This document shows positions 589-61,916 of a DNA stretch of 64,000 bases, piece by piece. The stretch spans positions 1 through 64,000 of IMG/VR virus record IMGVR_UViG_3300005330_000015, one strand, 5' to 3'. The stretch comes from a virus (lineage: Duplodnaviria; Caudoviricetes). Under the pieces are notes generated by a model. It had not been told where the DNA came from. It saw only the letters and a list, made by a program, of their open reading frames with translations, and did no database searches. The position numbers were made by a program, and so were the translations under genes. Position 1 is the stretch's first letter, and every line of letters begins with the position of its first letter.

Positions 589-633
589 ACCGTACCACGA
601 GCATGTTGACATCGTCAACTTTCTGGTTACTAT
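589..633. promoter_or_regulatory. Divergent promoter pair built on palindrome GTTGAC-ATC-GTCAAC (605-619)
   Basis: Plus: TTGACA-16-TACTAT-6-ATG(640). Minus: TTGACG-18-TACGGT-6-ATG(582). Confidence 0.75.
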
Positions 634-639
634 CAGACC

Positions 640-1032
640 ATGACCACACCGAACTCGGCCCTGTACGACGAGCTTGTCCTCACAGTGCAGCGATGCATCG
701 AGCGCGCTGAAGATCGATTACAGAAATTCGCGCTCGACCTTCAAGAGAGCGCGTTCTCCGCGATGGAGTGGTCACACGCGGCATTCGAGGCCGCTACTCA
801 TGCTGCCGTCTATCGGCAATTGATGCGCGAGCTCCGTGCTGAGCAGCCCGAGACCGAGACCGAGACCGAAAGCGATCGCGTGTCGCGGCTAACGCGACGA
901 TGCCAAAGAGAAGTCAACCAGCGCGTCAGATCTCCGGTGAGATCGACCAGCCCAACCGCTGTTCTTGCTAACCAGGAGCTCGTGGCGGCATGGGGTTCGG
1001 CGCTGCAACTGCTCATGGAGAGCGGCCTGTGA
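640..1032 (+). CDS. Hypothetical protein
   Basis: Leaderless promoter geometry; GTGA overlap with next ORF. Confidence 0.75.
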   Translation: MTTPNSALYDELVLTVQRCIERAEDRLQKFALDLQESAFSAMEWSHAAFEAATHAAVYRQLMRELRAEQPETETETESDRVSRLTRRCQREVNQRVRSPVRSTSPTAVLANQELVAAWGSALQLLMESGL

Positions 1033-1310
1033 GTAAGCGCAAGCGCCCCGTCGTGTGCTCCGCGAATCAGCGCGACCACATCGTCGCCGTGGTTGCTGAG
1101 CCGGCGAGCGGACCCGGGTGGGCCAACACGCCGCTATGGGTCATCATGCAGGACTCCAACGGAAACCTCCGACGCGGGTGCCTGCAACCGGATGAGCAGA
1201 GCAATGGCATCCGTGTTCTTTACGCAACCGCGGCTGCCGTGCATGGAGCACTCGTGCGGGAGGTCGAAGCGTTGACGAAGACGCGTAAGCCGATCAAGAG
1301 AACCCCATGA
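1029..1310 (+). CDS. Hypothetical protein
   Basis: GTG overlapping the upstream stop; protein-like composition. Confidence 0.7.
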   Translation: MSKRKRPVVCSANQRDHIVAVVAEPASGPGWANTPLWVIMQDSNGNLRRGCLQPDEQSNGIRVLYATAAAVHGALVREVEALTKTRKPIKRTP

Positions 1311-1316
1311 TGGATG

Positions 1317-1715
1317 CTACGTTACGGCGACGATATACGTCGCGCCGACTGGGTCCCTGACCACGGCCTGCTTGCCACCGGCATCCGCGGCGATGATGAA
1401 GTCCTTGCCCTTGCCCTCGATTGTCACATGGTCCGTGGGGAGCGGCACCACTCCGACCGGCAACGTCGCGCCAAGAATCAGGATCTGCGCGTCAGTGTCC
1501 TGCAGGAGCGACGCGGGCAATGCAAGCTGTGTCTCGCTTATCACCATCGCGCGGCACTTGAATGCCTGAGTCGTCGGATTCGTACCGCCGCTGAGGTTCC
1601 CAGGCTGGCGGATGCCAGGCGTGTATCTGGTTAGAACCGCAGGCTTGAAGCCGACTGTCGCGCCGTTCTGTCCCGAGAAGCCCTTGGCGATTGCCTTGGC
1701 GATATTGATAGCCAT
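1317..1715 (-). CDS. Putative head-closure / head-tail joining protein
   Basis: 132 aa from MAINIAKAIAKG; beta-rich with ...P.PTDHVTI...RDPVGATY C-terminus; lies downstream of the connector gene as in siphophage neck modules. Confidence 0.6.
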   Translation of the reverse strand: MAINIAKAIAKGFSGQNGATVGFKPAVLTRYTPGIRQPGNLSGGTNPTTQAFKCRAMVISETQLALPASLLQDTDAQILILGATLPVGVVPLPTDHVTIEGKGKDFIIAADAGGKQAVVRDPVGATYIVAVT

Positions 1716-1764
1716 GCCAGTAGCATTATCTGCTATGATGCATGGGTCGATAACCGCTAATGAT

Positions 1765-9415: not shown

Positions 9416-9424
9416 CGGCTACAT

Positions 9425-9460
9425 GTTGACATCGTCAGTGCCACAACGCAAGCTCAAGGC
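9425..9460 (+). promoter_or_regulatory. Palindrome variant GTTGAC-ATC-GTCAG with promoter
   Basis: TTGACA(9426)-17-CAAGCT-6-ATG(9461). Confidence 0.6.
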
Positions 9461-9918
9461 ATGCAGATCACACATCTACCTTGTTTGAGGCCGCTTTGAG
9501 CCAGCGTGAGCAATGGACGCTTGAGACCGTCATGCTTGAGCGTAAGCTTGTCGGTATCGCCGAGTCCCGCTACATGAGCGTGCTGGCTCTCGCACGAGAA
9601 ATGCAAGCGAGCACGGATGACCCATTGCGGCATGCGCAGCTCGACCAAATCATCGCGGTGCGCTCGCCAGTTCACCTCGGCGAATCAGAGGATCGTTGCA
9701 GCAACCTGTGCGACGAGGAGTCAGCACACGATTTCTCGAACATCGACCTCGATCGCGTCACATGGACCGACGATGGATCGTGGATCGACGAGGTCACCTG
9801 CGTCGAGTGCCTGCGCCTCGCCATCAAGATCGGACACGACGCCCAGCAGCGTCTCGACGCTATCCTCGCTTCATCTTCAGTTCACAGCGACGCGACGGCA
9901 GCCTCGAACGAGGGCTGA
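9461..9918 (+). pseudogene. Hypothetical protein, probable frameshift near 9479-9481
   Basis: The promoter-defined ATG 9461 gives only 12 aa; the long ORF (LFEAALSQ...) is in the adjacent frame. Confidence 0.45.
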
Positions 9919-10475: not shown

Positions 10476-10526
10476 ATATTATCCAATCTGTTTCTCCGGT
10501 ACATGTTCGCGCGTACCGGAGAAACC

Positions 10527-12164
10527 TCAACGTAGGCCAAGCCAGCGCCGTTTCGCGGGCTTCACGTTTGGTCGCGCGTTGACGTTGCCGGCCTGTCCTG
10601 GTCGTGCGGCAGCGGGGGCATCGGGCGTTGGCGTGACGCCGGATGGCTTGACTGGAGCGCCGGCTGGAGGCCCAGACGGCAGTCCTTGTCCTGGCAGTGG
10701 TTCACCATTAGGCCCTAGCCTAACCTCCATGCCACGCGGCAAATAGAGTTCGGTCTCGTCTTCCTCCGGTGCATCCGGCAGATCGAGTCGCGAACGCATG
10801 ACGTTAATCGCCTTATCCTTGGGGTTGAGCGCGGCCTGTGCCATGGTCATCAGCGTTCGCGCTGCATCAAGCACCGCGCCGGTGATGACCGGGTCGCACG
10901 TGATGAGCGGCGTGTCGGTCTCCGGATCGAGCCCGTTGAGTGCGATGAGCCGCGTTGCGACATCCCGGCGCATGTCGTCGGCGAGGTCGGTCAGCGCGCT
11001 GTTGACCAGCTTGCCGGCCATCGCGGTCTTGTCCTCGTGCATCGCATCCGAGCCCGAGCCGACGTCACCTAATAGCATCCACTCGGAGGCCATGATGCGC
11101 GCAATGTCGCGGGTCTCGCGCGCGATGGCCGCACCAACTTCGGCCTGTCCGGTACCGCCGCCGGAGACGAGCTCGAAGTCCCACTCGCGCGCGCCGCTTG
11201 GCGCCTGCGCGGTGTCCTTGTTCTCATACATCCGGCTGTCGAGCGCCAATCCCTGTTCGGGGTTCTTGTTTTTGAACGACAGGAACTCCTGGATAAATCC
11301 GGCCTTATCGTGGACATATGCCTTGATGTCCGCATCCGTCTTCGCTCCTGCCGCCTTGGCGTCGGCCATGAGACGCGAGAACGGCACGCGAGCTAGCGGG
11401 ATCCCGCGGAGCTCGGTCTGGAATCCGATTAGCTCCCACTTCCGGTACAGCTCGAGCACGCGCGCCGACTCGGCCGCGGCACGCAGCATCCCGATGCCCT
11501 CCGGGCCTCCTCCGATCACGTTGCTCACGCTGTACCAGAGGCGTTCGCGCGGGATGTACGGCGTCGCTCCTGTGCGCGAGAGCTGTTGCACGCCCTTCCA
11601 CTCGCTCTGCTCGTCGGGCTTATTCCATCTCCAGATGGTCCACTGCGGACGGTGCAGCAGGTCAGCGGCGATCACCATCCCATCGCTGCGGCGCCGGATA
11701 ACGAGCTCATGTAGCGAGAAGCCGCGGAACTTTTTTCCGAACAGCTGGCGCCGCACCGATGAGCGCCACGGCTCGGACATCTGCGCCTCGAACAACCCTT
11801 CGGTGACGACGTCGACCGCACGTTGTCCGGCCTTGGCACTAGCGCGCGGATTGGGCGAGGCCCGCCACTTTGCCGAGCCGCCAAGCTCGGTCCAGAAGTT
11901 GATCGCGGCCGGCACGATGGCGCATCCGAAGATGATATTGTCCTGCGTGACATACTTCTCGACGCCGATCAGCTTCTGATCGCGCTCACCGTAGAAAACG
12001 AACCCGCCATAGGTCGTCACGCCGTCAGAGCCGGCTACCTTTGTCGGCCCCGGCACAGGTCCGGGCGTGAATCCGCCTCCAGCGCCAGGCACCGGCGGCG
12101 CGACCTTGGCCACCTCGTCAATAGGCGCTGCTGCGTCGGAACGTCGAGACCATGGCCATCGCAC
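10527..12164 (-). CDS. Portal protein (DUF935 / Mu gp29-like)
   Basis: 545 aa; GFSLHE, GPEGIGMLR, Pro-rich tail; downstream of terL on the same strand. Confidence 0.85.
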   Translation of the reverse strand: MRWPWSRRSDAAAPIDEVAKVAPPVPGAGGGFTPGPVPGPTKVAGSDGVTTYGGFVFYGERDQKLIGVEKYVTQDNIIFGCAIVPAAINFWTELGGSAKWRASPNPRASAKAGQRAVDVVTEGLFEAQMSEPWRSSVRRQLFGKKFRGFSLHELVIRRRSDGMVIAADLLHRPQWTIWRWNKPDEQSEWKGVQQLSRTGATPYIPRERLWYSVSNVIGGGPEGIGMLRAAAESARVLELYRKWELIGFQTELRGIPLARVPFSRLMADAKAAGAKTDADIKAYVHDKAGFIQEFLSFKNKNPEQGLALDSRMYENKDTAQAPSGAREWDFELVSGGGTGQAEVGAAIARETRDIARIMASEWMLLGDVGSGSDAMHEDKTAMAGKLVNSALTDLADDMRRDVATRLIALNGLDPETDTPLITCDPVITGAVLDAARTLMTMAQAALNPKDKAINVMRSRLDLPDAPEEDETELYLPRGMEVRLGPNGEPLPGQGLPSGPPAGAPVKPSGVTPTPDAPAAARPGQAGNVNARPNVKPAKRRWLGLR

Positions 12165-12676: not shown

Positions 12677-12862
12677 GTGACCAAGCTAGCGAGCGATGCC
12701 GAGCGGGCTGTCGCCGCACTGGTCGCAGCCGAGCTCGCCCGCCACCTTCGCTTGCCGGTCACGCGGGCGAGGCTCCGCACGGAGTGCCCGGACATCGAGC
12801 CGGCCGTGATCAACACGGTGATCGACCGGTATATCGCCATCCTTGCGCGGAAATCTTCGTGA
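12677..12862 (+). CDS. Small hypothetical protein
   Basis: Starts 1 nt after the roadblock stop. Confidence 0.5.
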   Translation: MTKLASDAERAVAALVAAELARHLRLPVTRARLRTECPDIEPAVINTVIDRYIAILARKSS

Positions 12863-12932
12863 TGCCTGCCGGGATCGAACCAGCGACGCGCGGGATGTAA
12901 ACCCGCTGCTCTACCGACTGAGCTAAGGCATC
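12860..12932 (-). tRNA. tRNA-Val (anticodon UAC), CCA not encoded
   Basis: GATGCCT/AGGCATC acceptor stem, GCTC/GAGC D stem, GCGGG-TTTACAT-CCCGC anticodon arm, TTCGATC T loop, discriminator A. Confidence 0.95.
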
Positions 12933-16528: not shown

Positions 16529-17122
16529 CTACGCCGATGCCCCATCGTTGTCAGGGGTTTGCTCCGCCGAGCAGTCCTCGCACGGACCATCGAACATGAG
16601 TGCATGTCTTCCGTCGTCGCAGGTGAGCTGAGAGCCCGCCTGCAGATCGAACCCGGCAGCTTCCTCTGCCGTTGCCTGAGCAACATCGTTAACCACAACG
16701 TGAGTATGGCCGGTATCGCGGCCTGTCGAGGCATCCGCGCGCGCTATTAACGTGACACCACTTCCTCCACCACCGCCACCTTCGAGCCTGAGAAGTCGCG
16801 CGCGGAGAGCATCGCGCTCGGCCGTGAGCTCGGCGATGCGCGCGTTGGCCTCGCCCATGAGTCGCGCATGCTCGGGATACATGGTTATGGCGCGGCGCGT
16901 GAAATCGGACACCGTCCACTTGACGCCCGTTGCCTTATACTCAGCGGCGACGCCGGACTTGATGACCGCAAGGTCATGCTCGGAGGCGCGGAACTGCACC
17001 GTCTGGCGAGGCTCCGCTGACGCAGTTGACTTGGGTTGTTTCGTTACTCTCATCTGCTGTGCCTTCGGATTCGGCAGGCGCGGCTGCCGTGCCCTCTTAG
17101 TCCTCATGCTGGTACGTTTCAT
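16529..17122 (-). CDS. Protein with ribbon-helix-helix-like DNA-binding domain plus coiled coil
   Basis: TVQFRASEHDLAVIK...TVSDFTRRAI. Confidence 0.6.
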   Translation of the reverse strand: MKRTSMRTKRARQPRLPNPKAQQMRVTKQPKSTASAEPRQTVQFRASEHDLAVIKSGVAAEYKATGVKWTVSDFTRRAITMYPEHARLMGEANARIAELTAERDALRARLLRLEGGGGGGSGVTLIARADASTGRDTGHTHVVVNDVAQATAEEAAGFDLQAGSQLTCDDGRHALMFDGPCEDCSAEQTPDNDGASA

Positions 17123-17128
17123 GCCTGC

Positions 17129-17158
17129 ACGATGGCCGATTATGATGACCGTGTCAAC
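17129..17158 (-). promoter_or_regulatory. Palindrome variant GTTGAC-ACG-GTCAT with promoter
   Basis: TTGACA-17-CATCGT-6-ATG(17122). Confidence 0.7.
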
Positions 17159-18238: not shown

Positions 18239-19150
18239 TCACGACGTACGTCCGATCTGGGCGCGCAGCCATTCCTTGAACAGCGCCGCAGTTCGCTTGC
18301 CGATGGCAGCGGTGGCATCCCGGCTTTCTACCACCTCGCCGGCCGCCTCACGGTAGACGTCGACAACCATCGCCTTGATGACGTGCGGCGTATGCTTCAT
18401 GTCGAGCTTGATGAACCCGACGTGCATCCCTGATGGATCAAGCGAAGGCAGCAGCTTATCCATGATGTGAGCGAGCCGCATCGGCGTGACCCACTCTTGC
18501 GCTATTGCCTGCGCCTCTGCAAGCACCGCGAGCTTTTCGGGATCCACCACCTTCTGCGGTGTGGCGCGCTCGGAGAAAGCGTCGCACTTGTGCTTGGCGA
18601 TGATACGGTCACCGTTATTGAGCGTGACCTCGATCAGCGGTCGAAGCACAACGCCTTCGCGCACCTTATCATCGCCGCATCCACGACGCATTGCGACAAT
18701 GCTAGGTGCATCGCGCTCTCGGTCGAGCTCCATTATATCGGTTGACGTCTCGACGTACGGCACAAACTCGATACCAAGCCCAGTGGCAACCTGTTCCGCA
18801 TCACGAACCGATAGCCAGTGGTCGCCGATCTTGACGTCAAAGGCGATGAAGCGCAGTTCGTCACCATAGACCGCGCGCATGCCTTGCTGCTTGCCGCCGT
18901 ATGCCTCGCCGTAGACCGTGACCTTCGCATGGCCAAGGGCCGCGAGTCGCTCTTTGAGCGTGTCGGCATCGAACAGCGAGACGAACCGCTCATGGTTTTC
19001 TCCGCCCGCGAAGAAGATGAGCTGAGGGTTGCGGTCGGCGCGAAACGAGACGTGCGCGCTGGTTCCGTGCACCTTCTCGAGCGCGAAGCACCGGCGGAAC
19101 ATCAGGACCGTCTGGTTCCTGTACAGGTTGTCGATGGAAATATATCCCAC
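18239..19150 (-). CDS. RNA ligase (Rnl2-like nucleotidyltransferase)
   Basis: Motifs EKVHG, YGEAYG, FIAFDV, EGVVLR, IAKHK; true start probably GTG 19150 (MGYISIDNLY). Confidence 0.85.
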   Translation of the reverse strand: MGYISIDNLYRNQTVLMFRRCFALEKVHGTSAHVSFRADRNPQLIFFAGGENHERFVSLFDADTLKERLAALGHAKVTVYGEAYGGKQQGMRAVYGDELRFIAFDVKIGDHWLSVRDAEQVATGLGIEFVPYVETSTDIMELDRERDAPSIVAMRRGCGDDKVREGVVLRPLIEVTLNNGDRIIAKHKCDAFSERATPQKVVDPEKLAVLAEAQAIAQEWVTPMRLAHIMDKLLPSLDPSGMHVGFIKLDMKHTPHVIKAMVVDVYREAAGEVVESRDATAAIGKRTAALFKEWLRAQIGRTS

Positions 19151-19156
19151 GCCACG

Positions 19157-19224
19157 ACCATACGACATCGCGTTGACCATGTCAACACGCTTGACTTCCA
19201 CCGAGACGTGAGCAAGATGGACGG
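19157..19224. promoter_or_regulatory. Divergent promoters around palindrome GTTGAC-CAT-GTCAAC (19172-19186)
   Basis: Minus: TTGACA-17-TATGGT-6-GTG(19150). Plus: TTGACT(19191)-16-CAAGAT-6-ATG(19225). Confidence 0.8.
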
Positions 19225-20457: not shown

Positions 20458-20493
20458 GTTGACAACGTCAACGTGATGCCGCATAATAGCTGC
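20458..20493 (+). promoter_or_regulatory. Palindrome GTTGAC-AAC-GTCAAC with promoter
   Basis: TTGACA-17-CATAAT-6-ATG(20494). Confidence 0.8.
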
Positions 20494-20862
20494 ATGCCCG
20501 ACAAGTTATCGAACGGTGACCGCGTTGTTTATCGAGCATTTGGTCGCTCGCGGCATGGCGTGATCAAACGGCTTGCCAAAGTCAGCGTTATCATCGCGTT
20601 CGATAACGGGGGCGATGAACGCGTAAATCTGGCACAGGTAGAACCTGAAACTATTGACGACGTCCGCGAACGCGATGCCAAAGTAGCGATAAAGGCATGG
20701 TGCGACGCTAGGCCAGAGCGTCACCATATCACTGTCAAAACTGACTGGCTTGGCAAGATCAACGGCGTCTCAGTCGACGCGAAGACCGCCGATGAGATGC
20801 GCGAGGCATCCGCCGAGCTGCTTGCGTTCGCGGCATGGTTCGAGAATAAGCCGGTCGTCTGA
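20494..20862 (+). CDS. SH3-like-barrel hypothetical protein, paralogue of 32535-32873
   Basis: GDRVV...DERV.L....ET.DDV..R and T..EMR.A...L...A.WFE.KP. Confidence 0.75.
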   Translation: MPDKLSNGDRVVYRAFGRSRHGVIKRLAKVSVIIAFDNGGDERVNLAQVEPETIDDVRERDAKVAIKAWCDARPERHHITVKTDWLGKINGVSVDAKTADEMREASAELLAFAAWFENKPVV

Positions 20863-21635: not shown

Positions 21636-22129
21636 GGCCGCTCGAGCGACTGGCACGGCTTTGTCGGCGGTGGGGCGGCGAACTTCGCATGCTCACGTCG
21701 GAAGAATTCTCCGAACAGAGACGGCTACCAGGACGCTCCACGCACCCGGACTGGTTCCACGCCATCGATATCAAGGCTGGGCTCATCTTAGCTGACGCCG
21801 AGCATGCCAACGCTGGCACCGTGATTCACGAGATGGGGCACGTCTTTCTAAAGGAAGGTCACCCTTCATCGACCTCTGAACCCGATTGGCTTGGCTGGGA
21901 AATCGTCATGGCGCGGCAGAACAGATGCTACCGCGCTTGGGCGCTGCAAAATAATGATTACATCGTCCCATATGGCGACACCGACATCGAATGGAACCGG
22001 GCATCGCCTAACCAACTGCGTAGCATTATCTCCTCGAGTATTGCGCGAAGCACTGAGCTAGGCCTCATCGATGCGAACGGGCGGCCACGTTGCACGCGTA
22101 CATTCACTAAGCAACCGAGGCCAACGTGA
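21632..22129 (+). CDS. Putative HExxH metallopeptidase (ImmA/IrrE-like)
   Basis: VIHEMGH. Confidence 0.45.
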   Translation: MRPLERLARLCRRWGGELRMLTSEEFSEQRRLPGRSTHPDWFHAIDIKAGLILADAEHANAGTVIHEMGHVFLKEGHPSSTSEPDWLGWEIVMARQNRCYRAWALQNNDYIVPYGDTDIEWNRASPNQLRSIISSSIARSTELGLIDANGRPRCTRTFTKQPRPT

Positions 22130-22320
22130 ACGATGGTGCAAAACGAACCGAGCGCATCGTTGTGCGCGTATCTCCGTCTATGCTTCAGCGAGTAGCGGCG
22201 CTCGCGAGCTCATCCGATCGTCGCGTCGCCGACTGGGCCTACCTGGTTCTCAAGCGTGAGGTTGAGCATATAGAAGCGAAGATGACACGAAAACATAGCG
22301 GGCGATCGCGCGCTGGTTAG
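22126..22320 (+). CDS. Ribbon-helix-helix protein
   Basis: RTERIVVRVSPSMLQRVAALA...VADWAYLVL. Confidence 0.7.
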   Translation: MNDGAKRTERIVVRVSPSMLQRVAALASSSDRRVADWAYLVLKREVEHIEAKMTRKHSGRSRAG

Positions 22321-23080
22321 TTGACCGGAGGTTAAGCATTGAGCAGCTCATCTAATCTTCCCATATTACCTCAGCCGTGGATGCCTCAAGTTGGCGAGAC
22401 GTTCGAGGCGAGGATGCGCGACGACTCCCGCTGGTACCGGCTTGTATGGCTCGGCTTCAATTCACCGACGCCATGGCTTTGTTCGGCTCGAAGCGACGAC
22501 CCGAGCGGTCCGTATCCATACAGCGAGATCGTCGAGATTCGACCGTTGAGCGCACCATGAAGTTAACGATCACCATCACCGACGCCGAAGAGAATGCCAA
22601 ACGCGCCACGACGCGGGCGGCACGAGATTACAACGACCAGTTCCGCGCTCGGGCTAAGTAACCGGCTCGCCGGCCATGACGTTGCCGCGAGCGAAGCTCT
22701 CCCGTTGGCGCTCGCGTTGCTCAGAGGTCATCTCGGGCGCGTCGGCCAGCATGGCTCGGACCTCCGCGTTGCGCTCGGCCTGTTTATCCGATACACCGCC
22801 GAATGTGCCGGAGAAAGCCGTATCCGACGCGAGCGCGATGCCGTGCATGTCGACGACCTCAGCTCCGTCCTCGTGATGCAAAGCGTGGCCATATCCGGCG
22901 GCAAGCAACTTATCGCGGATCTCGGCGTATGCGGCCGGCGATACCTCTAGCACAACGTAGGTTCGGCTCATCGACGACACCGTATCACTTTACCACCGAC
23001 ACGAGCACGCCAGCCGAGAAGCCGTAGCTTGCGAGCGGAGGCGGTGGCGTCGCCATCATCGCCGCATGATGGCAGACCGT

Positions 23081-23095
23081 CTTGACGTCGTCAAC
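23081..23095. promoter_or_regulatory. Palindrome CTTGAC-GTC-GTCAAC
   Basis: 1 nt past the terL stop; minus-strand TTGACG-17-CATCAT-6-ATG. Confidence 0.7.
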
Positions 23096-23096: not shown

Positions 23097-24872
23097 CTAG
23101 CTCAGATCCATCACGAACCCGCCGAACGATGGCGTGTGCGTCGGCTCCGCAACAACCGCGGCGAACGCCCTACTGATCGCGTCAACGATGTCATCGTGCT
23201 CACCGTACGGGAAGTCCACGAGCTCGTTCAGCGCTTCCTCCCACCCTGGGTGACGCACGATGACGAAGTTGTGGCTCTGCGCCTGCCCGCTGACCGGTTT
23301 TGCGCGCACGACCTTATCTTTGACCTCGGGCGACGACGTCACGAACCGGCCGGCGGTGCACTCGCGCCGGATGTAGTCCGCGTAGTTCTTGCCAGTTCCG
23401 GGGTCCTCTGGGATAGACCAGTCGATGTCGCGCTCGTCCTTTGAATGCTGGTCGCGGATGAACTGTTCGAGGTCGCCAGGCGAGCCTCGCTTGGTCGCCG
23501 TGTGCCACAAGTAGAACTTGCGCGGCGCGTTCGTGCCTCGGGCCACTCGCGCGCTCGCACTGGGGTCGCTCTTGCGCGACTTGCCGCCGCCCCCGAAGTC
23601 CCAACCGCGCTTGCCGCGTGGCACGTCAGCCGGCACGTCATGTGGATCGATCAGCGTGCCTAGCTCCGGTGTGAACCACTCGGCCTTGAACCAGGCGCCT
23701 GACACATCGATGGGCCACTGATCGAGCTGTGCTGCTACCGCATCAGTGCCACCCTCGAGCGTCATCGTCGCTTCGAGGTCAGCGACCATCTTCTCGTGCA
23801 TCCGTATGGGATCCGCGAGCTGGCCGAACTCCGTGCGTGGATCTTTGTAGCCAATGCTCGAGCCGCGCCAGTGCTCGCTCTTTCGTGCTGGATGCTCCGC
23901 GCCCTTGTAACGCATCTCGATGAGCAGGTGCTCGTAGCCGAGGATGGGGTTCTTGATGATCACGCCCGAGATGTCGTGCTTGTGCACGCGCTGCATGATC
24001 CCGACCGTCGCGCTCGCGATGACCGGGCGGGGATCCTGCGGGTCCGGATCGAGCCCCATGCCGTGCACCGCGCGAACCCAGTACGGTACCTTGACCTTGT
24101 GCTCGAGCCCGCCGGAGCGAATGCGCGTCGGCAGCGTCCGCGTAAACCATCGCATCGCTTTCGTGAGCGCAGCTTCCGAATCAGCATCCTTGACAGGGTG
24201 GGGGTCGTCAAAAATCAGTCGGTCAGCGCGGAACCCCGTCCCCTTGCCTTGGATCGATGAGCTGCGGCGCCACCCGGCATGGTTATTCTTGAAAAAGCTC
24301 TTGGCATCGCTGCGCCGATCGATGCGGAATCGGTCGCCCCAGTAACGCTGAAAAATCTCACTCGCGATGAGCGTCCGTGACTCTTCGTTCTGCGTCTCGA
24401 CTAGCTCATCGCTATATGACCACGACATGAATCGGAGGTCAGGACGGTTACGCGGTCCCCATTCCCAGATCGGCCAGCAGACATTGGCGATGCGCGACTT
24501 CGTAGAGCCAGGCGGAACGTTGATCAGGAGCTTGGTTAGCCGGCCATCGCTCACGGCCTCCAGGTGCTCGCAGATCGCCTCCTGTACCCACGTCCGCACG
24601 AATGGCGTGCCCGGATCGAGCACTGGCCACATGAGCTCGACGAAATCAATGAGGTGCGCCTCGGCCCGCCGCTTCGCGTTGCGGATGACCACGACCTTGG
24701 GCCGTGCTAGTAGGAACGCGGTGGGCAACGAGACGGTGTGGCAGGTCTGGTCAAAGATCGCGCGCGGCTCAACCGGCACGCCGGCCGCGGACGCCGTGGC
24801 GCCGAGCATGGCCACTACCAGCGCCAGCGCGGCGTGTTTAGGTGCGTTGACGTTGTACTGAGCTAACGACAC
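23097..24872 (-). CDS. terL: Terminase large subunit
   Basis: Walker A-like INVPPGSTKS, Walker B LIFDDP, GWDFG, C-terminal HDDIVDA; start inferred at GTG 24872. Confidence 0.95.
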   Translation of the reverse strand: MSLAQYNVNAPKHAALALVVAMLGATASAAGVPVEPRAIFDQTCHTVSLPTAFLLARPKVVVIRNAKRRAEAHLIDFVELMWPVLDPGTPFVRTWVQEAICEHLEAVSDGRLTKLLINVPPGSTKSRIANVCWPIWEWGPRNRPDLRFMSWSYSDELVETQNEESRTLIASEIFQRYWGDRFRIDRRSDAKSFFKNNHAGWRRSSSIQGKGTGFRADRLIFDDPHPVKDADSEAALTKAMRWFTRTLPTRIRSGGLEHKVKVPYWVRAVHGMGLDPDPQDPRPVIASATVGIMQRVHKHDISGVIIKNPILGYEHLLIEMRYKGAEHPARKSEHWRGSSIGYKDPRTEFGQLADPIRMHEKMVADLEATMTLEGGTDAVAAQLDQWPIDVSGAWFKAEWFTPELGTLIDPHDVPADVPRGKRGWDFGGGGKSRKSDPSASARVARGTNAPRKFYLWHTATKRGSPGDLEQFIRDQHSKDERDIDWSIPEDPGTGKNYADYIRRECTAGRFVTSSPEVKDKVVRAKPVSGQAQSHNFVIVRHPGWEEALNELVDFPYGEHDDIVDAISRAFAAVVAEPTHTPSFGGFVMDLS

Positions 24873-24896
24873 GACTAATCGTCGCGCGTTGACACG
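24873..24896 (-). promoter_or_regulatory. terL upstream motif CGTGTCAACGCGCGACGAT-N5-GTG
   Basis: Matches the portal upstream motif. Confidence 0.55.
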
Positions 24897-24903
24897 TGCG
24901 GGT

Positions 24904-25863
24904 CTACCTGGGGTCGCGCCAGCCGTAGCCGTATGCAAGCGCGTCAACGCGATCGTCTGGCGAATCCGGAATCGCTTCAACATCATCCCAGCGCGTCAGA
25001 ATTATGCGAGATGGGTCATCTAGCCTATTCGCTCGCTCGAACTCACGCTGAGCGACGCGCTGCGCGTAAGTTACGCCTGAACCCAACCGGCCGTCCTCCA
25101 AAGGTCGCAGACGCTGGCTAACGCTCAGATACTCGAGACGTTGCGGATCCCTTGGCGTACCGTTGCGCCACCCCTGGCCGTTCAGCTCGGCCCCATCAAT
25201 CGTGGGACGCTGCCCAGGCCACGCATCCTTGAGCGCGCGCCCTGCGAACGCTGCCTCGTGGTCCCATGCGCATGCCACCGTATTGTTTGCGAGCACCGTG
25301 ACACGATCACCAACGCGTAGTCCGCGATCCTTGAACCAGCTAACGTCTCGCTCACCCCACACGCGCCACGCCAACAGGCGCACGAGTGGGTCGCTATCGA
25401 TGCCGCCGCGCTGCATGGTGGCGAGTACCTTGCGCCAGCTGGCCCGCTCGTCCGGGCTCGACGCTGACTCCGCGACCGGCATGCGCCACTTCCGTTCGGA
25501 CTTGACGACGAACTTGAGCATCCTGTGTTCACCCAAAACGGCTCGCGCGCTGACGTCGACGACATCTCCCAGCATATAGCGTAGCGACGACGACAGCTCA
25601 CAACGGATGAGAATGTCGGTTTCGCGTTGCGTCAACCGCCGCCCGTCGCCACACTGGTCGCCCCACCATGTGCCCGGCCGTGTTGCTTCGCGCACAGCCG
25701 CCCGCTCCTCATCCGTCCGTGCCAGCACCATAACCTCATCCACCAGCATCGCCTCCAACCGAGCGCGGACCTCGGGCTCCGTATCGCCACGCTCCTCGCG
25801 ATGGTCGTGAAGCACCGCACGCGTCGCGAGGATGCCTGGCGTCATCGTCGGAACTTCGGTCAC
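24904..25863 (-). CDS. Hypothetical protein, paralogue of 44109-45068
   Basis: Shared blocks EVRARLEAMLVDEV.VLARTDEERAAVRE and QRGGIDSDPLVRLLAWR.WGERD. Confidence 0.8.
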   Translation of the reverse strand: MTEVPTMTPGILATRAVLHDHREERGDTEPEVRARLEAMLVDEVMVLARTDEERAAVREATRPGTWWGDQCGDGRRLTQRETDILIRCELSSSLRYMLGDVVDVSARAVLGEHRMLKFVVKSERKWRMPVAESASSPDERASWRKVLATMQRGGIDSDPLVRLLAWRVWGERDVSWFKDRGLRVGDRVTVLANNTVACAWDHEAAFAGRALKDAWPGQRPTIDGAELNGQGWRNGTPRDPQRLEYLSVSQRLRPLEDGRLGSGVTYAQRVAQREFERANRLDDPSRIILTRWDDVEAIPDSPDDRVDALAYGYGWRDPR

Positions 25864-27312: not shown

Positions 27313-27660
27313 TCACGACGCACGCTCCGCTATAACGGTCATAGCCGCGGCCTTCCATGCCTCGGCGCGCGTCTTACCCGATCCCAGCGGGACCTCGTTG
27401 GTCATCCTGTTCGCGCCCCGAGTGATGTGAAAGGTTTGCGTCTGGCGAACGCACTTTGGCCGACAGGTCGCCGTCGGATACCTAGCGCGCACGATGACCA
27501 ACGCGTCCTCGAAGGTCATACGCGGACGCGGCACGACCAGCTCAACGCACGCAGCTTCGACCAACGCGGCCATGCTAACGCCTCGATCGTACGAAGCAGC
27601 AACCATGCGCTCGTAGACCTCGCCGGACACCGACACGCTGTACTTGTGCTTTGATGGCAT
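27313..27660 (-). CDS. Ribbon-helix-helix domain protein
   Basis: KYSVSVSGEVYERMVAAS..RGVSMAALVEAA; start 6 nt after -10 CATCAT. Confidence 0.7.
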   Translation of the reverse strand: MPSKHKYSVSVSGEVYERMVAASYDRGVSMAALVEAACVELVVPRPRMTFEDALVIVRARYPTATCRPKCVRQTQTFHITRGANRMTNEVPLGSGKTRAEAWKAAAMTVIAERAS

Positions 27661-27681
27661 GCTAGTATGATGCATGTTTGC

Positions 27682-38542: not shown

Positions 38543-39169
38543 CTAGTTCTTGTCAGCATCGTCGATCGCGCTCTCCAGCTCCTCGTCAGGCACGTTCACT
38601 CCTAACGGTGCCTCGAGCTCCTTAAATACGCCGCGCTCCTCGGCCTCGGCAAGGAGCTCCATGCCCTTCAGGAAGGCTGCCAGAATATCAGGCGGCAGCA
38701 CGGTTTCGAGCTTCGCAAGCACGAGGTCAACCTTGAGCTCGACGTCGATGCCGATGGAGCCGGTGTGCGTGACCTTGAGCTCGCGAGGCGCCGCTGCTCC
38801 GGTTAGGCGCGCGATCTCCTTGCTAGCTTGGATCACGCGTCCACGAAGCGCGGCGGTGCCCTGGTAGTCCTTGTTCTTTGCCGCATCGCGCGCCAGCTCC
38901 TCGGTCTGGTCGGCCACACGAGCCAGCCGGATCGCCTCCTGCTCACGCACGGCAACCAGGTCGGTGAACTCTAGCCCAATGAGCTTGCGTGCCGCAGCGA
39001 TGTCCTGCTGGGCCGTCGAGAAGTGCACCCCGAACCGGTTGACGATGGCCCTCTCCGTCTTCGAGTAGGTCCACTTGCGAAGGCACTTGGCCGCGAACTC
39101 GATTCTCGCCGGATCACGGGTTAGCCGATTACCCTTGGCACTGAGGACAGTTACGCGCTTTGACGCCAT
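38543..39169 (-). CDS. terS: Terminase small subunit (putative)
   Basis: N-terminal HTH, helical core, IARLTGAAAPRELKVTHTG tail typical of TerS. Confidence 0.65.
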   Translation of the reverse strand: MASKRVTVLSAKGNRLTRDPARIEFAAKCLRKWTYSKTERAIVNRFGVHFSTAQQDIAAARKLIGLEFTDLVAVREQEAIRLARVADQTEELARDAAKNKDYQGTAALRGRVIQASKEIARLTGAAAPRELKVTHTGSIGIDVELKVDLVLAKLETVLPPDILAAFLKGMELLAEAEERGVFKELEAPLGVNVPDEELESAIDDADKN

Positions 39170-39265
39170 ACGTCACCGGTCATGTCCGGAGCATCGATCC
39201 CGCATGTCGCGGATCATGGCTTCGAAAATCGAAGCATATACCTCTGCCGGATCGTTCACTGAGAC

Positions 39266-39294
39266 ATGATGGCACATCTGCTTGACGCTGTCAC
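39266..39294 (-). promoter_or_regulatory. Palindrome variant CTTGAC-GCT-GTCAC (39281-39294) upstream of terS
   Basis: GTGACA-17-CATCAT-6-GTG(39259), giving a 28-aa ORF that ends 3 nt before terS. Confidence 0.55.
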
Positions 39295-39464: not shown

Positions 39465-39521
39465 AGTGTCGACGTCGGTGTCGACGTTACCGACGACAAC
39501 TCGTGCACATGATGAGCACAT
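39465..39521. repeat. 57-bp dispersed repeat, copy 1
   Basis: 53/57 identical to 44053-44109. Confidence 0.9.
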
Positions 39522-40486: not shown

Positions 40487-41808
40487 GGCTTCCACCTGAT
40501 GACCATCGTGAATTCATCCGGATCTGACGGCGTGCATTCAGATCCGCAAAATCCTCGCTCCCACTGGAAGCTAATATCGGTCGTGCCAAGTAGCACGGTC
40601 AACGCCGCAAGCTTGTCGTATGTCAGTGACGCAGCCGACTCGCCGTGCATCTCTACGTACGCATCATCATTAGGTCCGTCTTCATTGTCACGCGCCACGA
40701 TTGCCACGGCGTTGAACCGTATGCCAACAGCGCGCAGCGCTCCGATTACCCTCTCCTCGACGTTTGACTGCCTGCTCATGGCTTCAACTTCCCCAACGCT
40801 GCGCGATGCGCCGCCCTCGTTGCCCGTGCCGCCTCGAGCAACGGCATGAAACTATCGTCGACCAGCCCATCACAGCGCGGCTTCCATTGCTCAAAGGCAA
40901 TTAACGCCTCATCGGCGGCCACAGCCGTGCGCGCCACCTCAAGCAGTATAGGCACCCAATACGACGGCCAGAGCTCCGCGTTGGCCTCGGCGTACTCGAT
41001 TCCATGTCGCGGGTTCACAGCTTGCTCTACAGGACGATGGGCGTCGCCAATCACGGTGCCTCCTTTTGCAAATCCTCATCGATACCGTTCACGATGGTCA
41101 CGCAGTCACGATGATCGAGATCGCCAGGCTCCACCATCTTGCGAACATGCATCAGTCGATCGCGCAGCATCTCCCGAAGCTCGTGACTCGTCTTACCGCC
41201 GGGCCTAACAAGTTCGACGTAGGCACGCTCGAACGGCGGCACTAGACCGACGAGTTCGACCTTTACGTAGTTCTTGGCTTGCTTCGCGTCAGCCAAGCCC
41301 AGAAGTGTCTGCGCCATCGCATGCACCGTGTCATCTACGGCCCGCGCGTGCTCGACCAGCGCGATCGTCTCCGCATCGACGCCAGCCTCAACAAGGGCAT
41401 CGCTTACGACCTGCCATTGCAGGACGCGCTTAGCATCGCGAAGGCTCATCGCGTCATCCTTGCCCAGATCTCATGTAGCTGGCACTCGTTGAGGACAATA
41501 CCGCGAGGCCACCAGTTATCGCCCTCACTATGGTGAAACTCCTCGTCGCTCGGGTGAGGATCCGGCGCGATGCTGAACGCTGGCAACCCAGATCCGCCAT
41601 CGAGCATGACAAACACGCTGTGAATCAACCCCTCCATGCGCCACCGTATCTCCCCAACCCGCCTGATCTCGGACGCGAACTCCGGCATCGTCAGGTCGGT
41701 GGTGCACCAGTAGTTGACCAACGATCGTACGTAGCCTAGCACGCACGAACGCATCTCCTCGACAGTCATCGCGCGCGGTTCATCGTTCGCTTCGATCTCG
41801 TCACTCAT
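40483..41808 (-). other. Four hypothetical CDSs
   Basis: 4-nt overlaps. Confidence 0.7.
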
Positions 41809-42275
41809 TCAGCAAGCATCGCATGCAGAAATGACGACGTCAACGCCTGGATTCCAGGCTCCTTGCTTTCGCGCGGCCCGGCGACGTTCACCGTGACGAC
41901 CTCATAGCTCTCCAGCCAGTCCAGCAGGCTCCGCCGTGCCTGATTAGTTGCCACGCCCAGGTGCTCGACGCGATACGGCTTACGAAGGCGTTGGCACAAC
42001 TCATAGGTGAGCTTGGTCCCGCCAGACAGCCGCTTGTTCCATACCATGATCAGCGTCGCATCGGAGGTGCAGATGTTCGCCTCGGTGCGTGCAGGCCATC
42101 CAGCAATCGTGCACTCGACCATGCCGGCGCGGAACCACTCCGGGATGACACCGTCCTCCGCGCGCCAACCCTTTGGTGCCGTGCCACCACGTTCCAGCTT
42201 CAACGCATGGGCCGCGAGTAGTCCGCCACGATCCACGCCCGTCTGACCGCCCGAGATGATGCGGCGAAGGATCAC
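41805..42275 (-). CDS. SLOG-superfamily protein (putative molybdenum carrier family)
   Basis: IISGGQTGVDRG, RTEAN...SDATL, GGT.LT, NVAGPRES. Confidence 0.9.
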   Translation of the reverse strand: MILRRIISGGQTGVDRGGLLAAHALKLERGGTAPKGWRAEDGVIPEWFRAGMVECTIAGWPARTEANICTSDATLIMVWNKRLSGGTKLTYELCQRLRKPYRVEHLGVATNQARRSLLDWLESYEVVTVNVAGPRESKEPGIQALTSSFLHAMLAE

Positions 42276-58911: not shown

Positions 58912-59589
58912 ATGAAGACATATTACGACGACGGGATCGCTAAGATCTACCTCGGTGACTGCGCCGAGATCGCACCAACGCTCGGCCACTTTGACCTGCT
59001 CTGCACGGACCCGCCGTATGGGATCGGGGCTACCCGCAAGGCAGCGAACCGCGGGCGAGTCCGCAAGGGGGTTGGGGTTGTCGCGTTCAATTACGAGCCA
59101 TCCGAGTGGGATGACGCTCCGCCAAGCGACGCGCTTCTAGCTGACCTTCGATCGCACGCAACACGGCAATGCATTTTCGGCGGAAATTACTTCGCTCTAC
59201 CGCCGTCCAGTTGCTGGCTAGTTTGGGACAAGGAGAACGGTGTCAGCGATTTCGCCGACGCTGAGCTTGCTTGGACTAATTACGACGCGGCCGTACGGCT
59301 AAAGCGACACCGCTGGTCTGGCTATTTACAGGCCGATATGGCTCGTAAGGAGGAGCGTGTCCATCCCACCCAGAAACCGCTTGCCGTGATGTCTTGGGTG
59401 ATCGGACTGTGCCCGGAGAAGCCGTCATCCGTGTTCGATCCGTTCATGGGCTCGGGCACTACTTTACGTGCTTGCAAAGACCTCGGGATCCGGTGCGTTG
59501 GCATCGAACGCGAGGAGAAGTACTGCGAGATCGCAGCGCGTCGACTCGGACAGTGCGTTTTGTCATTCGATGGTGCAGTGCTAAAGTGA
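58912..59589 (+). CDS. DNA N6A/N4C methyltransferase (beta class)
   Basis: TDPPYG, HPTQKP, DPFMGSGTT. Confidence 0.95.
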   Translation: MKTYYDDGIAKIYLGDCAEIAPTLGHFDLLCTDPPYGIGATRKAANRGRVRKGVGVVAFNYEPSEWDDAPPSDALLADLRSHATRQCIFGGNYFALPPSSCWLVWDKENGVSDFADAELAWTNYDAAVRLKRHRWSGYLQADMARKEERVHPTQKPLAVMSWVIGLCPEKPSSVFDPFMGSGTTLRACKDLGIRCVGIEREEKYCEIAARRLGQCVLSFDGAVLK

Positions 59590-59845
59590 CAACGTTAGAT
59601 CTCGAGATTCGGTGGAGTAAGCGCGAACGTGCACTACTTTACGCTGGCTGCAAGGCGACCGGCGGCATGCTCTCGCATTTTCTTGAAGGCGTGAAGCTCA
59701 TCGATGCGTACGGCTTGCGCGATGGCCTGGCTGCAAAGCTGCATTATAAGAACGCTAGCGACGAGCGCACGCTTGCACAGGAACTTGACGCGCGCGGTTA
59801 CGACCTGACCACGTTACGTTTTTCGATCCGCAAGAAAGTTACGCC

Positions 59846-60184
59846 ATGACGAACATCCAGTTGGATCTCGAAGACCTCGAACGCAAGGCACGTGCTGCAT
59901 TTACTGGGCCATGGACCGCTGCAAACTCGAATCCATCGGATTACTGCGCAGTCCTCTACGACGACAACACCGGAGATATGTACGAAGTATGCGACGATTG
60001 CACGCCAGTGACCGCGTCGCACATCGCGGCGAATAGTCCGCCGGTGACGCTTGCGCTCATCGCACGCATTCGCCGCCTCGAAGAGGAGCTCGCTCGCGCC
60101 GCTGGCATCGCTCGGGCGCATGGCGAGAACGCGTACGCCGAGGACTTCATGCACGTCGCACAGGATCGCGAGATTTTACCGTGA
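59846..60184 (+). CDS. Ead/Ea22-like protein
   Basis: GPW...HIAANSPPVTLALIARIR. Confidence 0.75.
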   Translation: MTNIQLDLEDLERKARAAFTGPWTAANSNPSDYCAVLYDDNTGDMYEVCDDCTPVTASHIAANSPPVTLALIARIRRLEEELARAAGIARAHGENAYAEDFMHVAQDREILP

Positions 60185-60693
60185 CTAATTACTCAAGCCT
60201 TTCGCTAGTCGCTGACAACATATTCATCGTCAACGAACAATGTCTCTGCCGTCGCACCTCCGAATGGTGCGGCGAGTGTTTTGATGGCGAGCGTGCAGGC
60301 GGATATGTCGACCTCAATCCCGTTCTTCACGGCATCGCGACCACCGCAGCTCTCGTGCTCGCGTTTCGCCTTGGTGACGCGTACGGATGGGACATGGCCA
60401 ACGACGAAGACCAGACCACCGATGCGTGGCGACCGAACTCAGAAGGGCGAGCGATATGACGCTAGCCACTTGCGAGCACTGCAATTGCCGAGGCCGGCGC
60501 GCTCTAACGGCTCTTGAGCAGACAGCGTTAGACGCCGTGCGGCTGACGTGGAGGACGACCGCGGATGTATTGCGGGCGATCCCTGGTAGAACCGTCCACG
60601 TGGAACAGCACTTCTTAACCGCTTGACCGACCTCCAACGGCTGGGCCTGATCCAGCGAGCGACCGACAACAAAGAACACCTCTGGAGACGAAT

Positions 60694-61875
60694 ATGAAGC
60701 AACCAGCCGCCATCGTAGAAGACCAGCGCGACCATCACGCCCGCACAGTGCGCGCCGCCCAGCGTTCCCTGACCGCATCGCAACAGCAGGAAGCCAAGGC
60801 ATCGGAGCAGCACAACAAGGCCCGCGAGAGCCTCGACGACGCACGGCAGAAGACCGCGCATGCGCGCATGGAGCTTGGCCGAGCGCTCGCCGCTGCGAGG
60901 AAGATGTTCCCTCGCTCTGGCGTCAACGCGAAGGGCTGGACCGAGTTCCTGGCCGAGATCGGCATGGATCCCGACGTGGCCGACGTGGCGATGAAGTACG
61001 CCGCGCACATCGACGACGACCCGGCTTTCTCCGGTACATCCGAGGATGCACCGGAAGAACGACGCCTACCCACGCTGCGCGAAGCCGGCCTCGACTCGCG
61101 ACCACGTGCTAGCGAACGTACGCGCGAAGACAAGCGCGACGACCAGGACGAGGAGAAGCCCGAACGCTCGACGACGGCCGCGACATCACGCGCTATACCG
61201 ATGTCCGAGACCGAGCTACTAGACGCGCTGTCCATCGCCACACCACAAATCCGTGCGCGCGTCATCCGCGCTACAAAAATCAAGATGCTTGATGACGGCG
61301 ACAAGAAACGCGACGGCTGGTGCACGAGCGACAAGTGGGCACAAGCCATTGGGCCTATCGACCTCGATCCGTTCTGCGGCCCTTACTCGATGATCGCTGC
61401 GGCGATCAAGTGCATGCGCGAGAATGACGGTGACGGGTTCGGTGGTGGGCAGCCTGGCATGATCCCCGGCTCGTACCTCGTCGGCACGAGCCTTGGCTGC
61501 GAGGCCGAGCGCGGCTTGGCCACCAAGGAGACCTTGGTCTTCTTGCGCCCACCGAGCAACCTGGTGCTCGATGCTGTCGCGCATTACGGCCATACCCGGT
61601 TCGTCGCCGTGCTTCCCTGGGCGCCCTATGCCGAGTGGTTCGAGCGCCTATGGCCGCTCTGCGAGGTCGTGTGCCATCCGCTCGAGCGCATTGGGTTAAT
61701 GCCGCCGCCTGACGTGTCGGATCCCGAGTTTCACGATCCGCACCCCCACGCGCTGTTCTACCGGCGCGCGTCGGATGTGACCGACGCGGTGCGAGAGCTC
61801 TGCATCGTCATCACCGTGGACCATGGACGTTCCGATCCGACGAGGATGCAGCAGACGTTGCGACTCGTGAAGTAG
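60694..61875 (+). CDS. DUF3102-like domain fused to a degenerate phage Dam-like methyltransferase
   Basis: ELG..L..A....W..FL N-terminus; DGWCT, DLDP; RPPS at the NPPY position. Confidence 0.6.
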   Translation: MKQPAAIVEDQRDHHARTVRAAQRSLTASQQQEAKASEQHNKARESLDDARQKTAHARMELGRALAAARKMFPRSGVNAKGWTEFLAEIGMDPDVADVAMKYAAHIDDDPAFSGTSEDAPEERRLPTLREAGLDSRPRASERTREDKRDDQDEEKPERSTTAATSRAIPMSETELLDALSIATPQIRARVIRATKIKMLDDGDKKRDGWCTSDKWAQAIGPIDLDPFCGPYSMIAAAIKCMRENDGDGFGGGQPGMIPGSYLVGTSLGCEAERGLATKETLVFLRPPSNLVLDAVAHYGHTRFVAVLPWAPYAEWFERLWPLCEVVCHPLERIGLMPPPDVSDPEFHDPHPHALFYRRASDVTDAVRELCIVITVDHGRSDPTRMQQTLRLVK

Positions 61876-61887
61876 GCGACGAATTGC

Positions 61888-61916
61888 GTTGACACCGTCA
61901 ACGCGTGCGATATGAT
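61888..61916 (+). promoter_or_regulatory. Palindrome GTTGAC-ACC-GTCAAC with promoter
   Basis: TTGACA-16-TATGAT-9-ATG(61926). Confidence 0.8.

Follow-up and report, generated by a model that had tools for sequence, protein, structure and literature searches.

Dispersed operator regulons are known already from a few phage groups, namely those with stoperators and those with the Cluster O repeats. Here, we describe a palindrome, TTGAC-N3-GTCAA (TTGACNNNGTCAA, 13 bp), that recurs throughout the genome of a soil phage of the Caudoviricetes. The window, by which we mean the whole stretch of DNA that was analyzed, comprises positions 1 to 64000 of the 119,072-bp virus record IMGVR_UViG_3300005330_000015 in IMG/VR; the complete record is referred to as G000. 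We consider it likely from the sequence that the palindrome is a promoter-operator element, in which one arm would serve as the -35, a dimeric protein on the dyad would occlude it, and about 15 dispersed units would switch together.

The closest published analogue is the 17-bp repeat of the Cluster O mycobacteriophages, 5'-TGTTCGGNNNCCGAACA, a 7-N3-7 sequence present in 34 copies whose function is not known (PMC4351075). As in G000, its invariant inverted repeats lie exactly 3 bp apart, in many dispersed copies that are mostly intergenic or at the 5' ends of genes, and neither system has an identified binding protein (PMC4351075). The Cluster O repeat differs in its 7-bp half-site of another sequence (5 to 6 bp here), in having been mapped apart from predicted SigA promoters, whereas our repeat is predicted to be the -35 itself, and in being reported in one cluster, whereas ours extends to unrelated phages and to repressor loci of bacteria. 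Stoperators are 13 to 14 bp long and oriented to block elongation inside operons. The Cluster A (L5/Bxb1) systems employ one repressor and many short dispersed sites, one of them over an early promoter (PMC9283540, PMC6550527), and these sites are asymmetric and bound by a monomer (PMC9283540). Our element, by contrast, is a perfect dyad at the -35, implying a block of initiation by a dimer rather than a block of elongation at asymmetric sites.

Four other systems share particular features with the element. The TetR-tetO pair has a 15-bp dyad at divergent repressor and target promoters, and TetR operators resemble our element in being 15-bp palindromes over promoter elements, with the same GTTGAC-N3-GTCAAC sequence standing beside bacterial genes for TetR_N + TetR_C_33 proteins. 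The phages differ in lacking a TetR gene and in holding 3 to 15 operators in 34 to 164 kb, against 1 to 4 per bacterial chromosome. Sites for host regulators also occur in phage promoters, with Spo0A boxes in phi29 and NtcA sites in cyanophages tying development to the state of the host; these are global regulators with many host targets, whereas the TetR candidate considered below is local and its binding is only predicted. At the Pcr promoter of plasmid pMV158, the small ribbon-helix-helix (RHH) protein CopG binds as a dimer to a 13-bp pseudo-symmetric element that includes the -35 and represses initiation, but it controls one autoregulated plasmid promoter with no dispersed regulon, and the phage RHH proteins here are only putative. 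The PeSL cassettes of T4-type phages combine a terminator hairpin with a promoter and have been proposed as recombination substrates. They, too, are regulatory modules that recur where small blocks of genes meet, but our dyad, with arms of only 5 to 6 bp, is internal to the promoter and lacks the features of a terminator. What sets the element apart from known dispersed operators is its predicted fusion to the -35, the leaderless starts, and its recurrence in unrelated phages and at TetR loci.

The palindrome and its promoters

Eight perfect copies of the palindrome lie in the window, where dinucleotide-preserving shuffles give an expectation of 0.07 and never reached eight in 100 trials. Allowing up to one mismatch yields 17 sites, against 1.2 expected. 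The preliminary description of this DNA had reported the eight perfect copies, six one-mismatch copies (7053, 9426, 17145, 39282, 45085, and 57907), and an excess over a rough chance expectation. All of this is borne out, and three one-mismatch copies can be added (41831, 50787, and 53509). G000 as a whole contains 13 perfect copies, including those past the window at 67820, 72253, 73872, 93704, and 112404, compared with 1 for a reversed-pattern control. Only the N3 spacing is enriched, with 13 copies versus 0 or 1 at each other spacing from N0 to N12; everted arrangements of the arms also occur 0 or 1 times per spacing, as do direct repeats of the arm except at N10, where there are 2. Ranked by count, TTGAC-N3-GTCAA is the leading 5-Nx-5 palindrome in G000, ahead of GC-rich ones. 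Gene calling with an iterated codon-usage model gives about 225 genes for this record (61.8% G+C; completeness of 100% by CheckV), with 86% of the sequence coding and numerous 4-bp overlaps, and 12 of the 13 perfect copies are non-coding, given leaderless starts. A literature search with the palindrome in several spellings returned matches in primers only.

A sigma70-type promoter is predicted at each perfect copy, with the palindrome as its -35. All 13 show, in one orientation or both, TTGACA or TTGACG, a spacer of 16 to 18 nucleotides (nt), a TAnnnT or CATnnT hexamer, and an ATG or GTG 6 to 10 nt further on. The earlier statement that one arm is a -35 with a -10 at 16 to 18 nt, made for most copies, is thus true of every perfect copy, and the remark that copies lie just before start codons can be tightened to a start 6 to 10 nt after the -10. 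For most copies, this codon is the in-frame start of a called gene, a placement that about 15% of random sites would show by our rough estimate. There is no room for a Shine-Dalgarno sequence between the -10 and the start codon, and the transcripts are therefore predicted to be leaderless or near-leaderless; Shine-Dalgarno-like sequences and translational coupling are present at internal genes of G000. The predicted-promoter strand reads TTGACA in 10 and TTGACG in 3 of the 13 perfect copies, so that the center is asymmetric (mostly A-n-C) and the arms are perfect. Promoter geometry or a position at a start site is also seen for four one-mismatch copies (17145, 39282, 41831, and 9426). The sites, each promoter being written as -35, spacer, -10, distance, and start codon, and the two core genes nearest to the argument are as follows.

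606-618 (within 580-642), both strands: perfect copy, predicted -35 shared by two leaderless promoters that point in opposite directions, their start codons 58 bp apart; TTGACA-16-TACTAT-6-ATG at 640 (plus strand) and TTGACG-18-TACGGT-6-ATG at 582 (minus strand)
19173-19185 (within 19148-19185), minus strand: perfect copy, TTGACA-17-TATGGT-6-GTG at 19150, the start of the RNA ligase gene
20459-20471 (within 20459-20496), plus strand: perfect copy, TTGACA-17-CATAAT-6-ATG at 20494
23082-23094 (within 23057-23094), minus strand: perfect copy, TTGACG-17-CATCAT-6-ATG at 23059, which opens a 24-codon open reading frame (ORF) reaching the start region of the next gene (called start 22980)
27683-27695 (within 27658-27695), minus strand: perfect copy, TTGACA-17-CATCAT-6-ATG at 27660, the start of the first gene of a minus-strand block whose last gene is terL
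27971-27983 (within 27947-28009), both strands: perfect copy, same sequence as the 27683 copy; plus strand TTGACG-17-TACGAC-7-GTG at 28007 (protein with four helix-turn-helix [HTH] units), minus strand TACGAT-6-ATG at 27949 with an 8-codon ORF only
31664-31676 (within 31637-31698), between divergent blocks: perfect copy; minus strand TTGACG-17-TATCGT-8-ATG at 31639 (helicase gene), plus strand ATG at 31696 with a poor -10
61889-61901 (within 61889-61928), plus strand: perfect copy, TTGACA-16-TATGAT-9-ATG at 61926, 13 nt past the stop of gene 60694-61875
73872 (G000, past the window): perfect copy, TTGACA-17-TACAGT-7-ATG
17145-17157 (within 17120-17157), minus strand: one mismatch, TTGACA-17-CATCGT-6-ATG at 17122, 197-residue protein with an RHH-like segment
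41831-41843 (within 41806-41843), minus strand: one mismatch, TTGACG-17-GATGCT-6-ATG at 41808, inside the 3' end of the upstream gene
39282-39294 (within 39257-39294), minus strand: one mismatch, GTGACA-17-CATCAT-6-GTG at 39259, which would open an upstream ORF of about 29 codons (counted by eye) ahead of gene 38543-39169
9426-9438, in the divergent gap 9416-9480: one mismatch, 10 nt separate its end from the ATG at 9415; an operator close to the start site is more likely than a -35
23097-24986, minus strand: terL
10527-12164: portal gene

About 15 of the roughly 20 credible TTGAC-type promoters in G000 have the second arm; those without it include the promoter of an XRE gene at 50566 and one at 71477. 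Promoter symmetry on the second side is weaker at 27971, 31664, and 19173. The genes behind palindrome promoters include the RNA ligase, the helicase, and many small ORFs, and no copy lies immediately upstream of the start codons of terL or the portal gene. It had also been suggested that copies abut the stops of core genes, which is correct for copy 23082, ending 2 nt from the terL stop; the label "connector" given to gene 60694-61875 has no Pfam or PHROG support. Five G000 promoters (71495, 72271, 73891, 75774, and 93722) have in common an extended -10 region, GATGTACAGT. Three of these have a perfect palindrome, one has an arm with 2 mismatches, and one has none, which suggests promoter copying inside the G000 genome.

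Recurrence in other phages and at bacterial loci

An IMG/VR scan with the palindrome, a -10, and an ATG returned mostly single chance matches among the matches listed. A count of the bare palindrome per locus revealed contigs with multiple copies. The whole-record counts are given below, and the reversed control is 0 for each record listed.

G001: 164 kb, 45% G+C, terminal repeats, 15 copies, all within 80.7-97.7 kb
G002: 58.9 kb, 65% G+C, terminal repeats, 7 copies
G003: 33.8 kb, 70% G+C, fragment, 6 copies
G005: 39 kb, 64% G+C, terminal repeats, 4 copies
G006: 38.5 kb, 66% G+C, 65% complete, 3 copies
G007: 46.5 kb, 69% G+C, 40% complete, 5 copies
G008: 58.9 kb, 91% complete, 6 copies

The element is present in multiple copies (3 to 15) in at least five phage lineages of 45 to 70% G+C, which is a new result, as are the conservation of both arms between diverged relatives and the association with bacterial TetR genes described below. 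A stricter 20-base pattern is found in six viral contigs only, and all six are multi-copy. The layout common to all is TTGACA-nn-GTCAA, a 17-nt spacer, TAnnnT, and an ATG usually 6 to 7 nt on; leadered examples also occur in G003, G005, and G007. The sigma70-type spacing of 16 to 18 nt between -35 and -10 holds in G001, G002, G003, G005, and G007 as well. The bases flanking the arms are symmetric in each lineage, G...C in G000, G002, G003, G005, and G007 and GC...GC in G001, which bears on the binder because a dimer predicts a symmetric site. By BLASTP of the ORFs, G002 and G006 form one lineage and G003 and G007 another, and G000, G001, G002, G003, and G005 have almost no proteins in common. 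G008 is assigned to the G002 lineage solely because the two are almost equal in size and have pattern matches in common.

Megablast found no close relative of G000 in the cultured-phage collection, and its TerL is at most 33% identical to those of cultured phages; the TerL of G003 is only 34% identical to those of SPO1-like phages, and that of G002 has no match among cultured phages. The sole IMG/VR relative of G000 is L001, with a TerL that is 64% identical, and it contains no copy of the palindrome at all, including none after terL. In G001, the 80.7-97.7 kb region (L089, L120, and L158) contains 15 near-identical promoters of the form GC-TTGACAnnGTCAA-GCrGAAAGGn-TAtAmT, each heading a small gene of 52 to 139 residues. 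This region looks like a host-takeover early-gene cluster.

G003 and G007 are about 75% identical and syntenic. Five of the six G003 palindromes lie at orthologous positions in G007, and across the five promoter pairs, the arms are identical at 50 of 50 positions. Identity falls to 46% in the 40 nt upstream, 73% in the center, 67% in the spacer, 77% in the -10, and 51% downstream. Both arms are invariant while the flanks drift, and thus the arm that is not the -35 is under selection as strong as the -35, which points to a symmetric binder. The dyad symmetry is conserved past what recognition by RNA polymerase needs, as in an operator that overlaps a promoter.

We searched 185,579 species-representative bacterial genomes with the pattern GTTGACANCGTCAAC-N8-10-TANNNT-N5-8-ATG and obtained 49 matches across many phyla, where we estimate about 13 by chance with equal base frequencies. 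At many of these loci, a second palindrome lies over the start codon, so that the proteins begin with MVN..., MST..., or MLTVST..., and these second copies also have G...C flanks, which the pattern does not force. Seven neighbors that we tested are TetR_N + TetR_C_33 proteins of 184 to 205 residues, and one target at these loci is a short-chain dehydrogenase. With a hidden Markov model (HMM) built from the seven neighbors, a divergent TetR (E values of 1e-40 to 1e-80) was found within 160 bp of GTTGAC-N3-GTCAAC at 28 of the 49 loci, mostly within 30 bp. The taxa concerned include Mycolicibacterium, Microbacterium, Rathayibacter, Paenarthrobacter, and Paenibacillus, as well as Chloroflexota, Acidobacteriota, Planctomycetota, and Gamma- and Betaproteobacteria. 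Five such genomes contain the 15-bp dyad 1 to 4 times per 4 to 8 Mb, almost always at the loci first found; the 13-bp form is at background level. The dyad therefore behaves as an operator of this TetR_N + TetR_C_33 subfamily; its position in the gaps between divergent repressor and target genes, often with the second copy over the start codon, is operator behavior as well. The phage dyad has the same sequence as the dyad at the bacterial subfamily loci.

The subfamily itself is little described: its PDB matches are generic TetR folds only, no NCBIfam equivalog lies above cut-off, and a literature search for TetR_C_33 operators gave nothing useful. Genomes with an "MVN" target and no adjacent TetR encode such a TetR elsewhere. 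The pairing of a TetR_C_33 gene with a leaderless gene of about 287 to 301 residues is kept in Mycobacteriaceae, Microbacteriaceae, and Jatrophihabitantaceae (L166, L169, L174-L176, L179, L185, L187, and L194), with GTTGAC-N3-GTCAAC at the -35; the target is a short-chain dehydrogenase by Pfam in L176 only (Mycolicibacterium neoaurum, TetR_C_33 gene at L176:5055-5642), and the others are alike in N-terminal sequence. These loci predict an operator for an unstudied actinobacterial regulon. In an Omnitrophota metagenome-assembled genome and two uncultured bacteria (L167, L180, and L192), paired TTGAC-N3-GTCAA dyads 28 bp apart precede sufB-sufC and may be an unrecognized operator of the suf operon. 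Two of these three genomes have no TetR_C_33 regulator at E values of 1e-20 or below.

No cognate TetR is encoded alongside the dyad in the phages, and it could still be supplied by the host. A six-frame search of G000 to G003 gave no PF00440 (TetR_N) or PF13305 (TetR_C_33) match at E values up to 1, the subfamily HMM reached a best E value of about 1 on the same four, and G005 to G008 gave no PF00440 match. A pattern-based scan of IMG/VR with the TetR alignment found no viral relative of the subfamily.

Candidate binders and rival explanations

In the mechanism that we propose, a TTGACA-type arm would act as the -35 for the host's primary sigma70-type RNA polymerase, and the start codon 6 to 10 nt past the -10 would leave the mRNA leaderless or nearly so. 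The 13- to 15-bp dyad (G)TTGAC-N3-GTCAA(C), centered near -29, would be the site of a dimeric DNA-binding protein. Once bound, the dimer would cover the -35 and exclude sigma region 4, and one protein would in this way switch about 15 dispersed, mostly leaderless transcription units jointly. Protein binding, repression, and the identity of the binder are what we infer from sequence. The idea of a dispersed regulon of small units under one regulator, raised in the preliminary description, is broadly supported by the count of about 15 units and by the selection on both arms. Since the regulon includes the helicase, the RNA ligase, and many small genes, an early or middle class is suggested. Given that the element also occurs in other, unrelated phages (at least five lineages in all) and beside TetR genes of bacteria, a host protein may be the regulator, as may a small phage protein of a widely shared kind. 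Candidates encoded by G000, and one gene for contrast, are as follows.

27313-27660, minus strand: candidate binder, 115 residues, RHH-like N terminus, first gene behind a perfect palindrome
28007-28816, plus strand: candidate binder, 269 residues, zinc knuckle and four tandem HTH units, first gene behind a perfect palindrome
50566-50842, plus strand: XRE-type (HTH_3) gene with its own TTGACA promoter without the N3 palindrome, a contrast case

The binder is quite possibly, though short of probably, a small phage protein of the RHH-like or four-HTH kind. That the phage encodes a small repressor of its own is what one would ordinarily expect, and the candidate genes are placed as autoregulation would have them: the identical palindromes 27683 and 27971 flank a small locus of regulatory appearance, the 17122 protein is a further candidate as the first gene behind a one-mismatch palindrome, and an RHH-like first gene lies directly behind the palindrome in G003 and G007 as well. 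In these two phages, one palindrome promoter heads a protein of 74 to 81 residues with a similar RHH-like pattern by eye and a low-confidence model; jackhmmer found no link between it and the RHH-like proteins of G000, and a jackhmmer search from the G000 32099 protein found just one paralogue, inside G000. An RHH-like pattern, a beta-strand and two helices, is recognizable by eye in the proteins encoded at 16529-17122, 22126-22320, and 32099-32281. AlphaFold models the 27313-27660 product as a strand at residues 7 to 12 and helices at 13 to 26 and 30 to 40 (beta-alpha-alpha), with a predicted local distance difference test (pLDDT) score of only 47.5. The four RHH labels of the preliminary description (16529, 22126, 27313, and 32099) are putative, with the low-confidence beta-alpha-alpha model as support for one of them. 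In atlas searches, the candidate binders scored below 0.8. The same description named an XRE protein at 50603, which is a real HTH_3 protein; its own promoter has no N3 palindrome, and it is therefore a poor candidate. That promoter (50566-50602) has a TTGACA-N10-TGTCA inverted repeat, with a GTCAAC...TTGAC pair upstream, and the repeat is probably a separate operator for the XRE regulator.

Several observations weigh against the proposed regulon and its phage-encoded binder. The one-mismatch copies at 7053, 45085, 50787, 53509, and 57907 are intragenic or have no -10, and may be chance occurrences. The early or middle class is suggested by gene content only. The RHH candidates have no Pfam match even at E values up to 1, and the structure models of candidate binders are of low confidence (pLDDT scores of 47.5 and 58.8). 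Finally, BLASTP clustering of all ORFs from seven phages yielded no protein family common to all, and a phage-encoded binder therefore requires several unrelated or undetectably related proteins to converge on one site.

This last difficulty would disappear if the binder were the host TetR_N + TetR_C_33 repressor and the phage early promoters carried its operator, a reading that we judge rather unlikely overall. In its variants, a small-molecule sensor would gate phage transcription, or replicating phage DNA would titrate the repressor. The proximity of the 15-bp dyad to a divergent TetR of one subfamily at 28 of 49 loci, its scarcity on the chromosomes (just 1 to 4 per 4 to 8 Mb), and bacterial target promoters with the same -35/-10/leaderless layout all speak for it, as do the identical site, spacing, and flanks in unrelated phages that have no common proteins. 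A TetR gene is absent from all eight phage records with 3 to 15 copies (G000-G003 and G005-G008, of which five are complete to at least 90%), and no IMG/VR virus encodes the subfamily by the pattern-based scan. However, this reading presumes that the hosts of these phages encode the repressor. A local repressor of low abundance would be outnumbered by 13 to 15 operators per phage genome, and repression of early promoters at entry offers no obvious gain to a large, apparently virulent phage. The dyad pair ahead of sufBC in genomes without this TetR indicates that the site is not exclusive to one regulator family, and the GC...GC flank variant of G001 is not enriched in 401 Bacillota genomes (3 matches versus 10 for the reversed control).

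The palindrome might instead need no dedicated binder and be a symmetric -35 for bidirectional promoters or the extended consensus of very strong promoters. Site 606 does serve two well-formed divergent promoters, with similar symmetry at 27971, 31664, and 19173, and the entire spacer is conserved too in G001, as in families of strong early promoters. Yet all 15 G001 copies and most G000 copies have no credible opposite promoter, no RNA polymerase contact is known to read positions -28 to -23, and the bacterial dyad, at background genome-wide, favors repressor loci over strong housekeeping promoters; we regard this explanation as very improbable. Only slightly less improbable is the view, compatible with an operator and advanced in the preliminary description, that promoter and palindrome form a mobile cassette, the unit or recombination site by which accessory blocks are gained. 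Alignable blocks of G003 and G007 often start 10 to 30 nt upstream of a palindrome, none of the perfect G007 copies corresponds to G003 copy 8794, and the five G000 promoters with the GATGTACAGT -10 region lie at 71 to 94 kb. That idea is weakly supported, as the orthology of five of six G003 sites in G007 looks inherited rather than shuffled, divergence upstream is expected of any intergenic region, terL is not followed by a copy in L001, the only near relative of G000, and G002 and G006 are too similar to be informative. The promoter-operator reading, with one dimeric regulator, is the one that we retain as likely.

Other repeated elements and the meaning of the regulon

G000 contains further repeats. 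A conserved hairpin, CTCCGGTAC-N10-11-GTACCGGAG, has four intergenic copies, two in the window (10494-10521 and 50462-50489) and two past it (94572-94600 and 112321-112348). One of them closely follows the portal-side block, another is in the gap between the divergent genes ahead of the XRE gene, and a third stands about 70 nt upstream of the 112404 palindrome; the hairpin may act as a terminator or in RNA processing. An exact 22-nt repeat, GTCGACGTCGGTGTCGACGTTA, at 39468-39489 and 44056-44077, lies within about 55 nt of similar sequence; each copy occupies a gap between genes of the minus-strand block and is followed by ...GCACATSATGAGCACA, and the repeat looks like a second repeated regulatory element. 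The direct repeat CGCTACCCCA has four intergenic copies on the plus strand only (G000 71459, 78316, 92959, and 92970), the last two in tandem. The only tRNA of the window is a tRNA-Val with anticodon TAC (12859-12932, minus strand). Upstream of terL, an 873-bp stretch (24987-25859) has no codon-usage gene call though it is within a minus-strand operon, and it may hold a missed gene, for example that of the small terminase subunit. The 160 nt before the start codons used for terL and the portal gene share no exact word of 9 nt or more, in a crude check of a proposed 19-nt element.

The element gives a ready promoter map for an otherwise unannotatable 119-kb phage. For a large TetR subfamily that has not been studied, it also provides a predicted operator, of use in predicting regulons and designing biosensors. 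On the boldest interpretation, several unrelated soil phage lineages would independently have put the operator of a widespread host TetR-family repressor on the -35 of early leaderless promoters, which seems to us unlikely, marginally more so than the host repressor as binder in itself. If true, a host small-molecule sensor would decide whether infection proceeds or, alternatively, the many operators on the phage DNA would sequester the repressor, so that its host regulon is derepressed. In both cases, phage and host regulation would be coupled in a new way, by a local repressor that responds to a ligand. At issue is whether phages time infection by means of a ligand-sensing repressor borrowed from the host or whether unrelated small phage repressors have converged on the same -35-based dyad.

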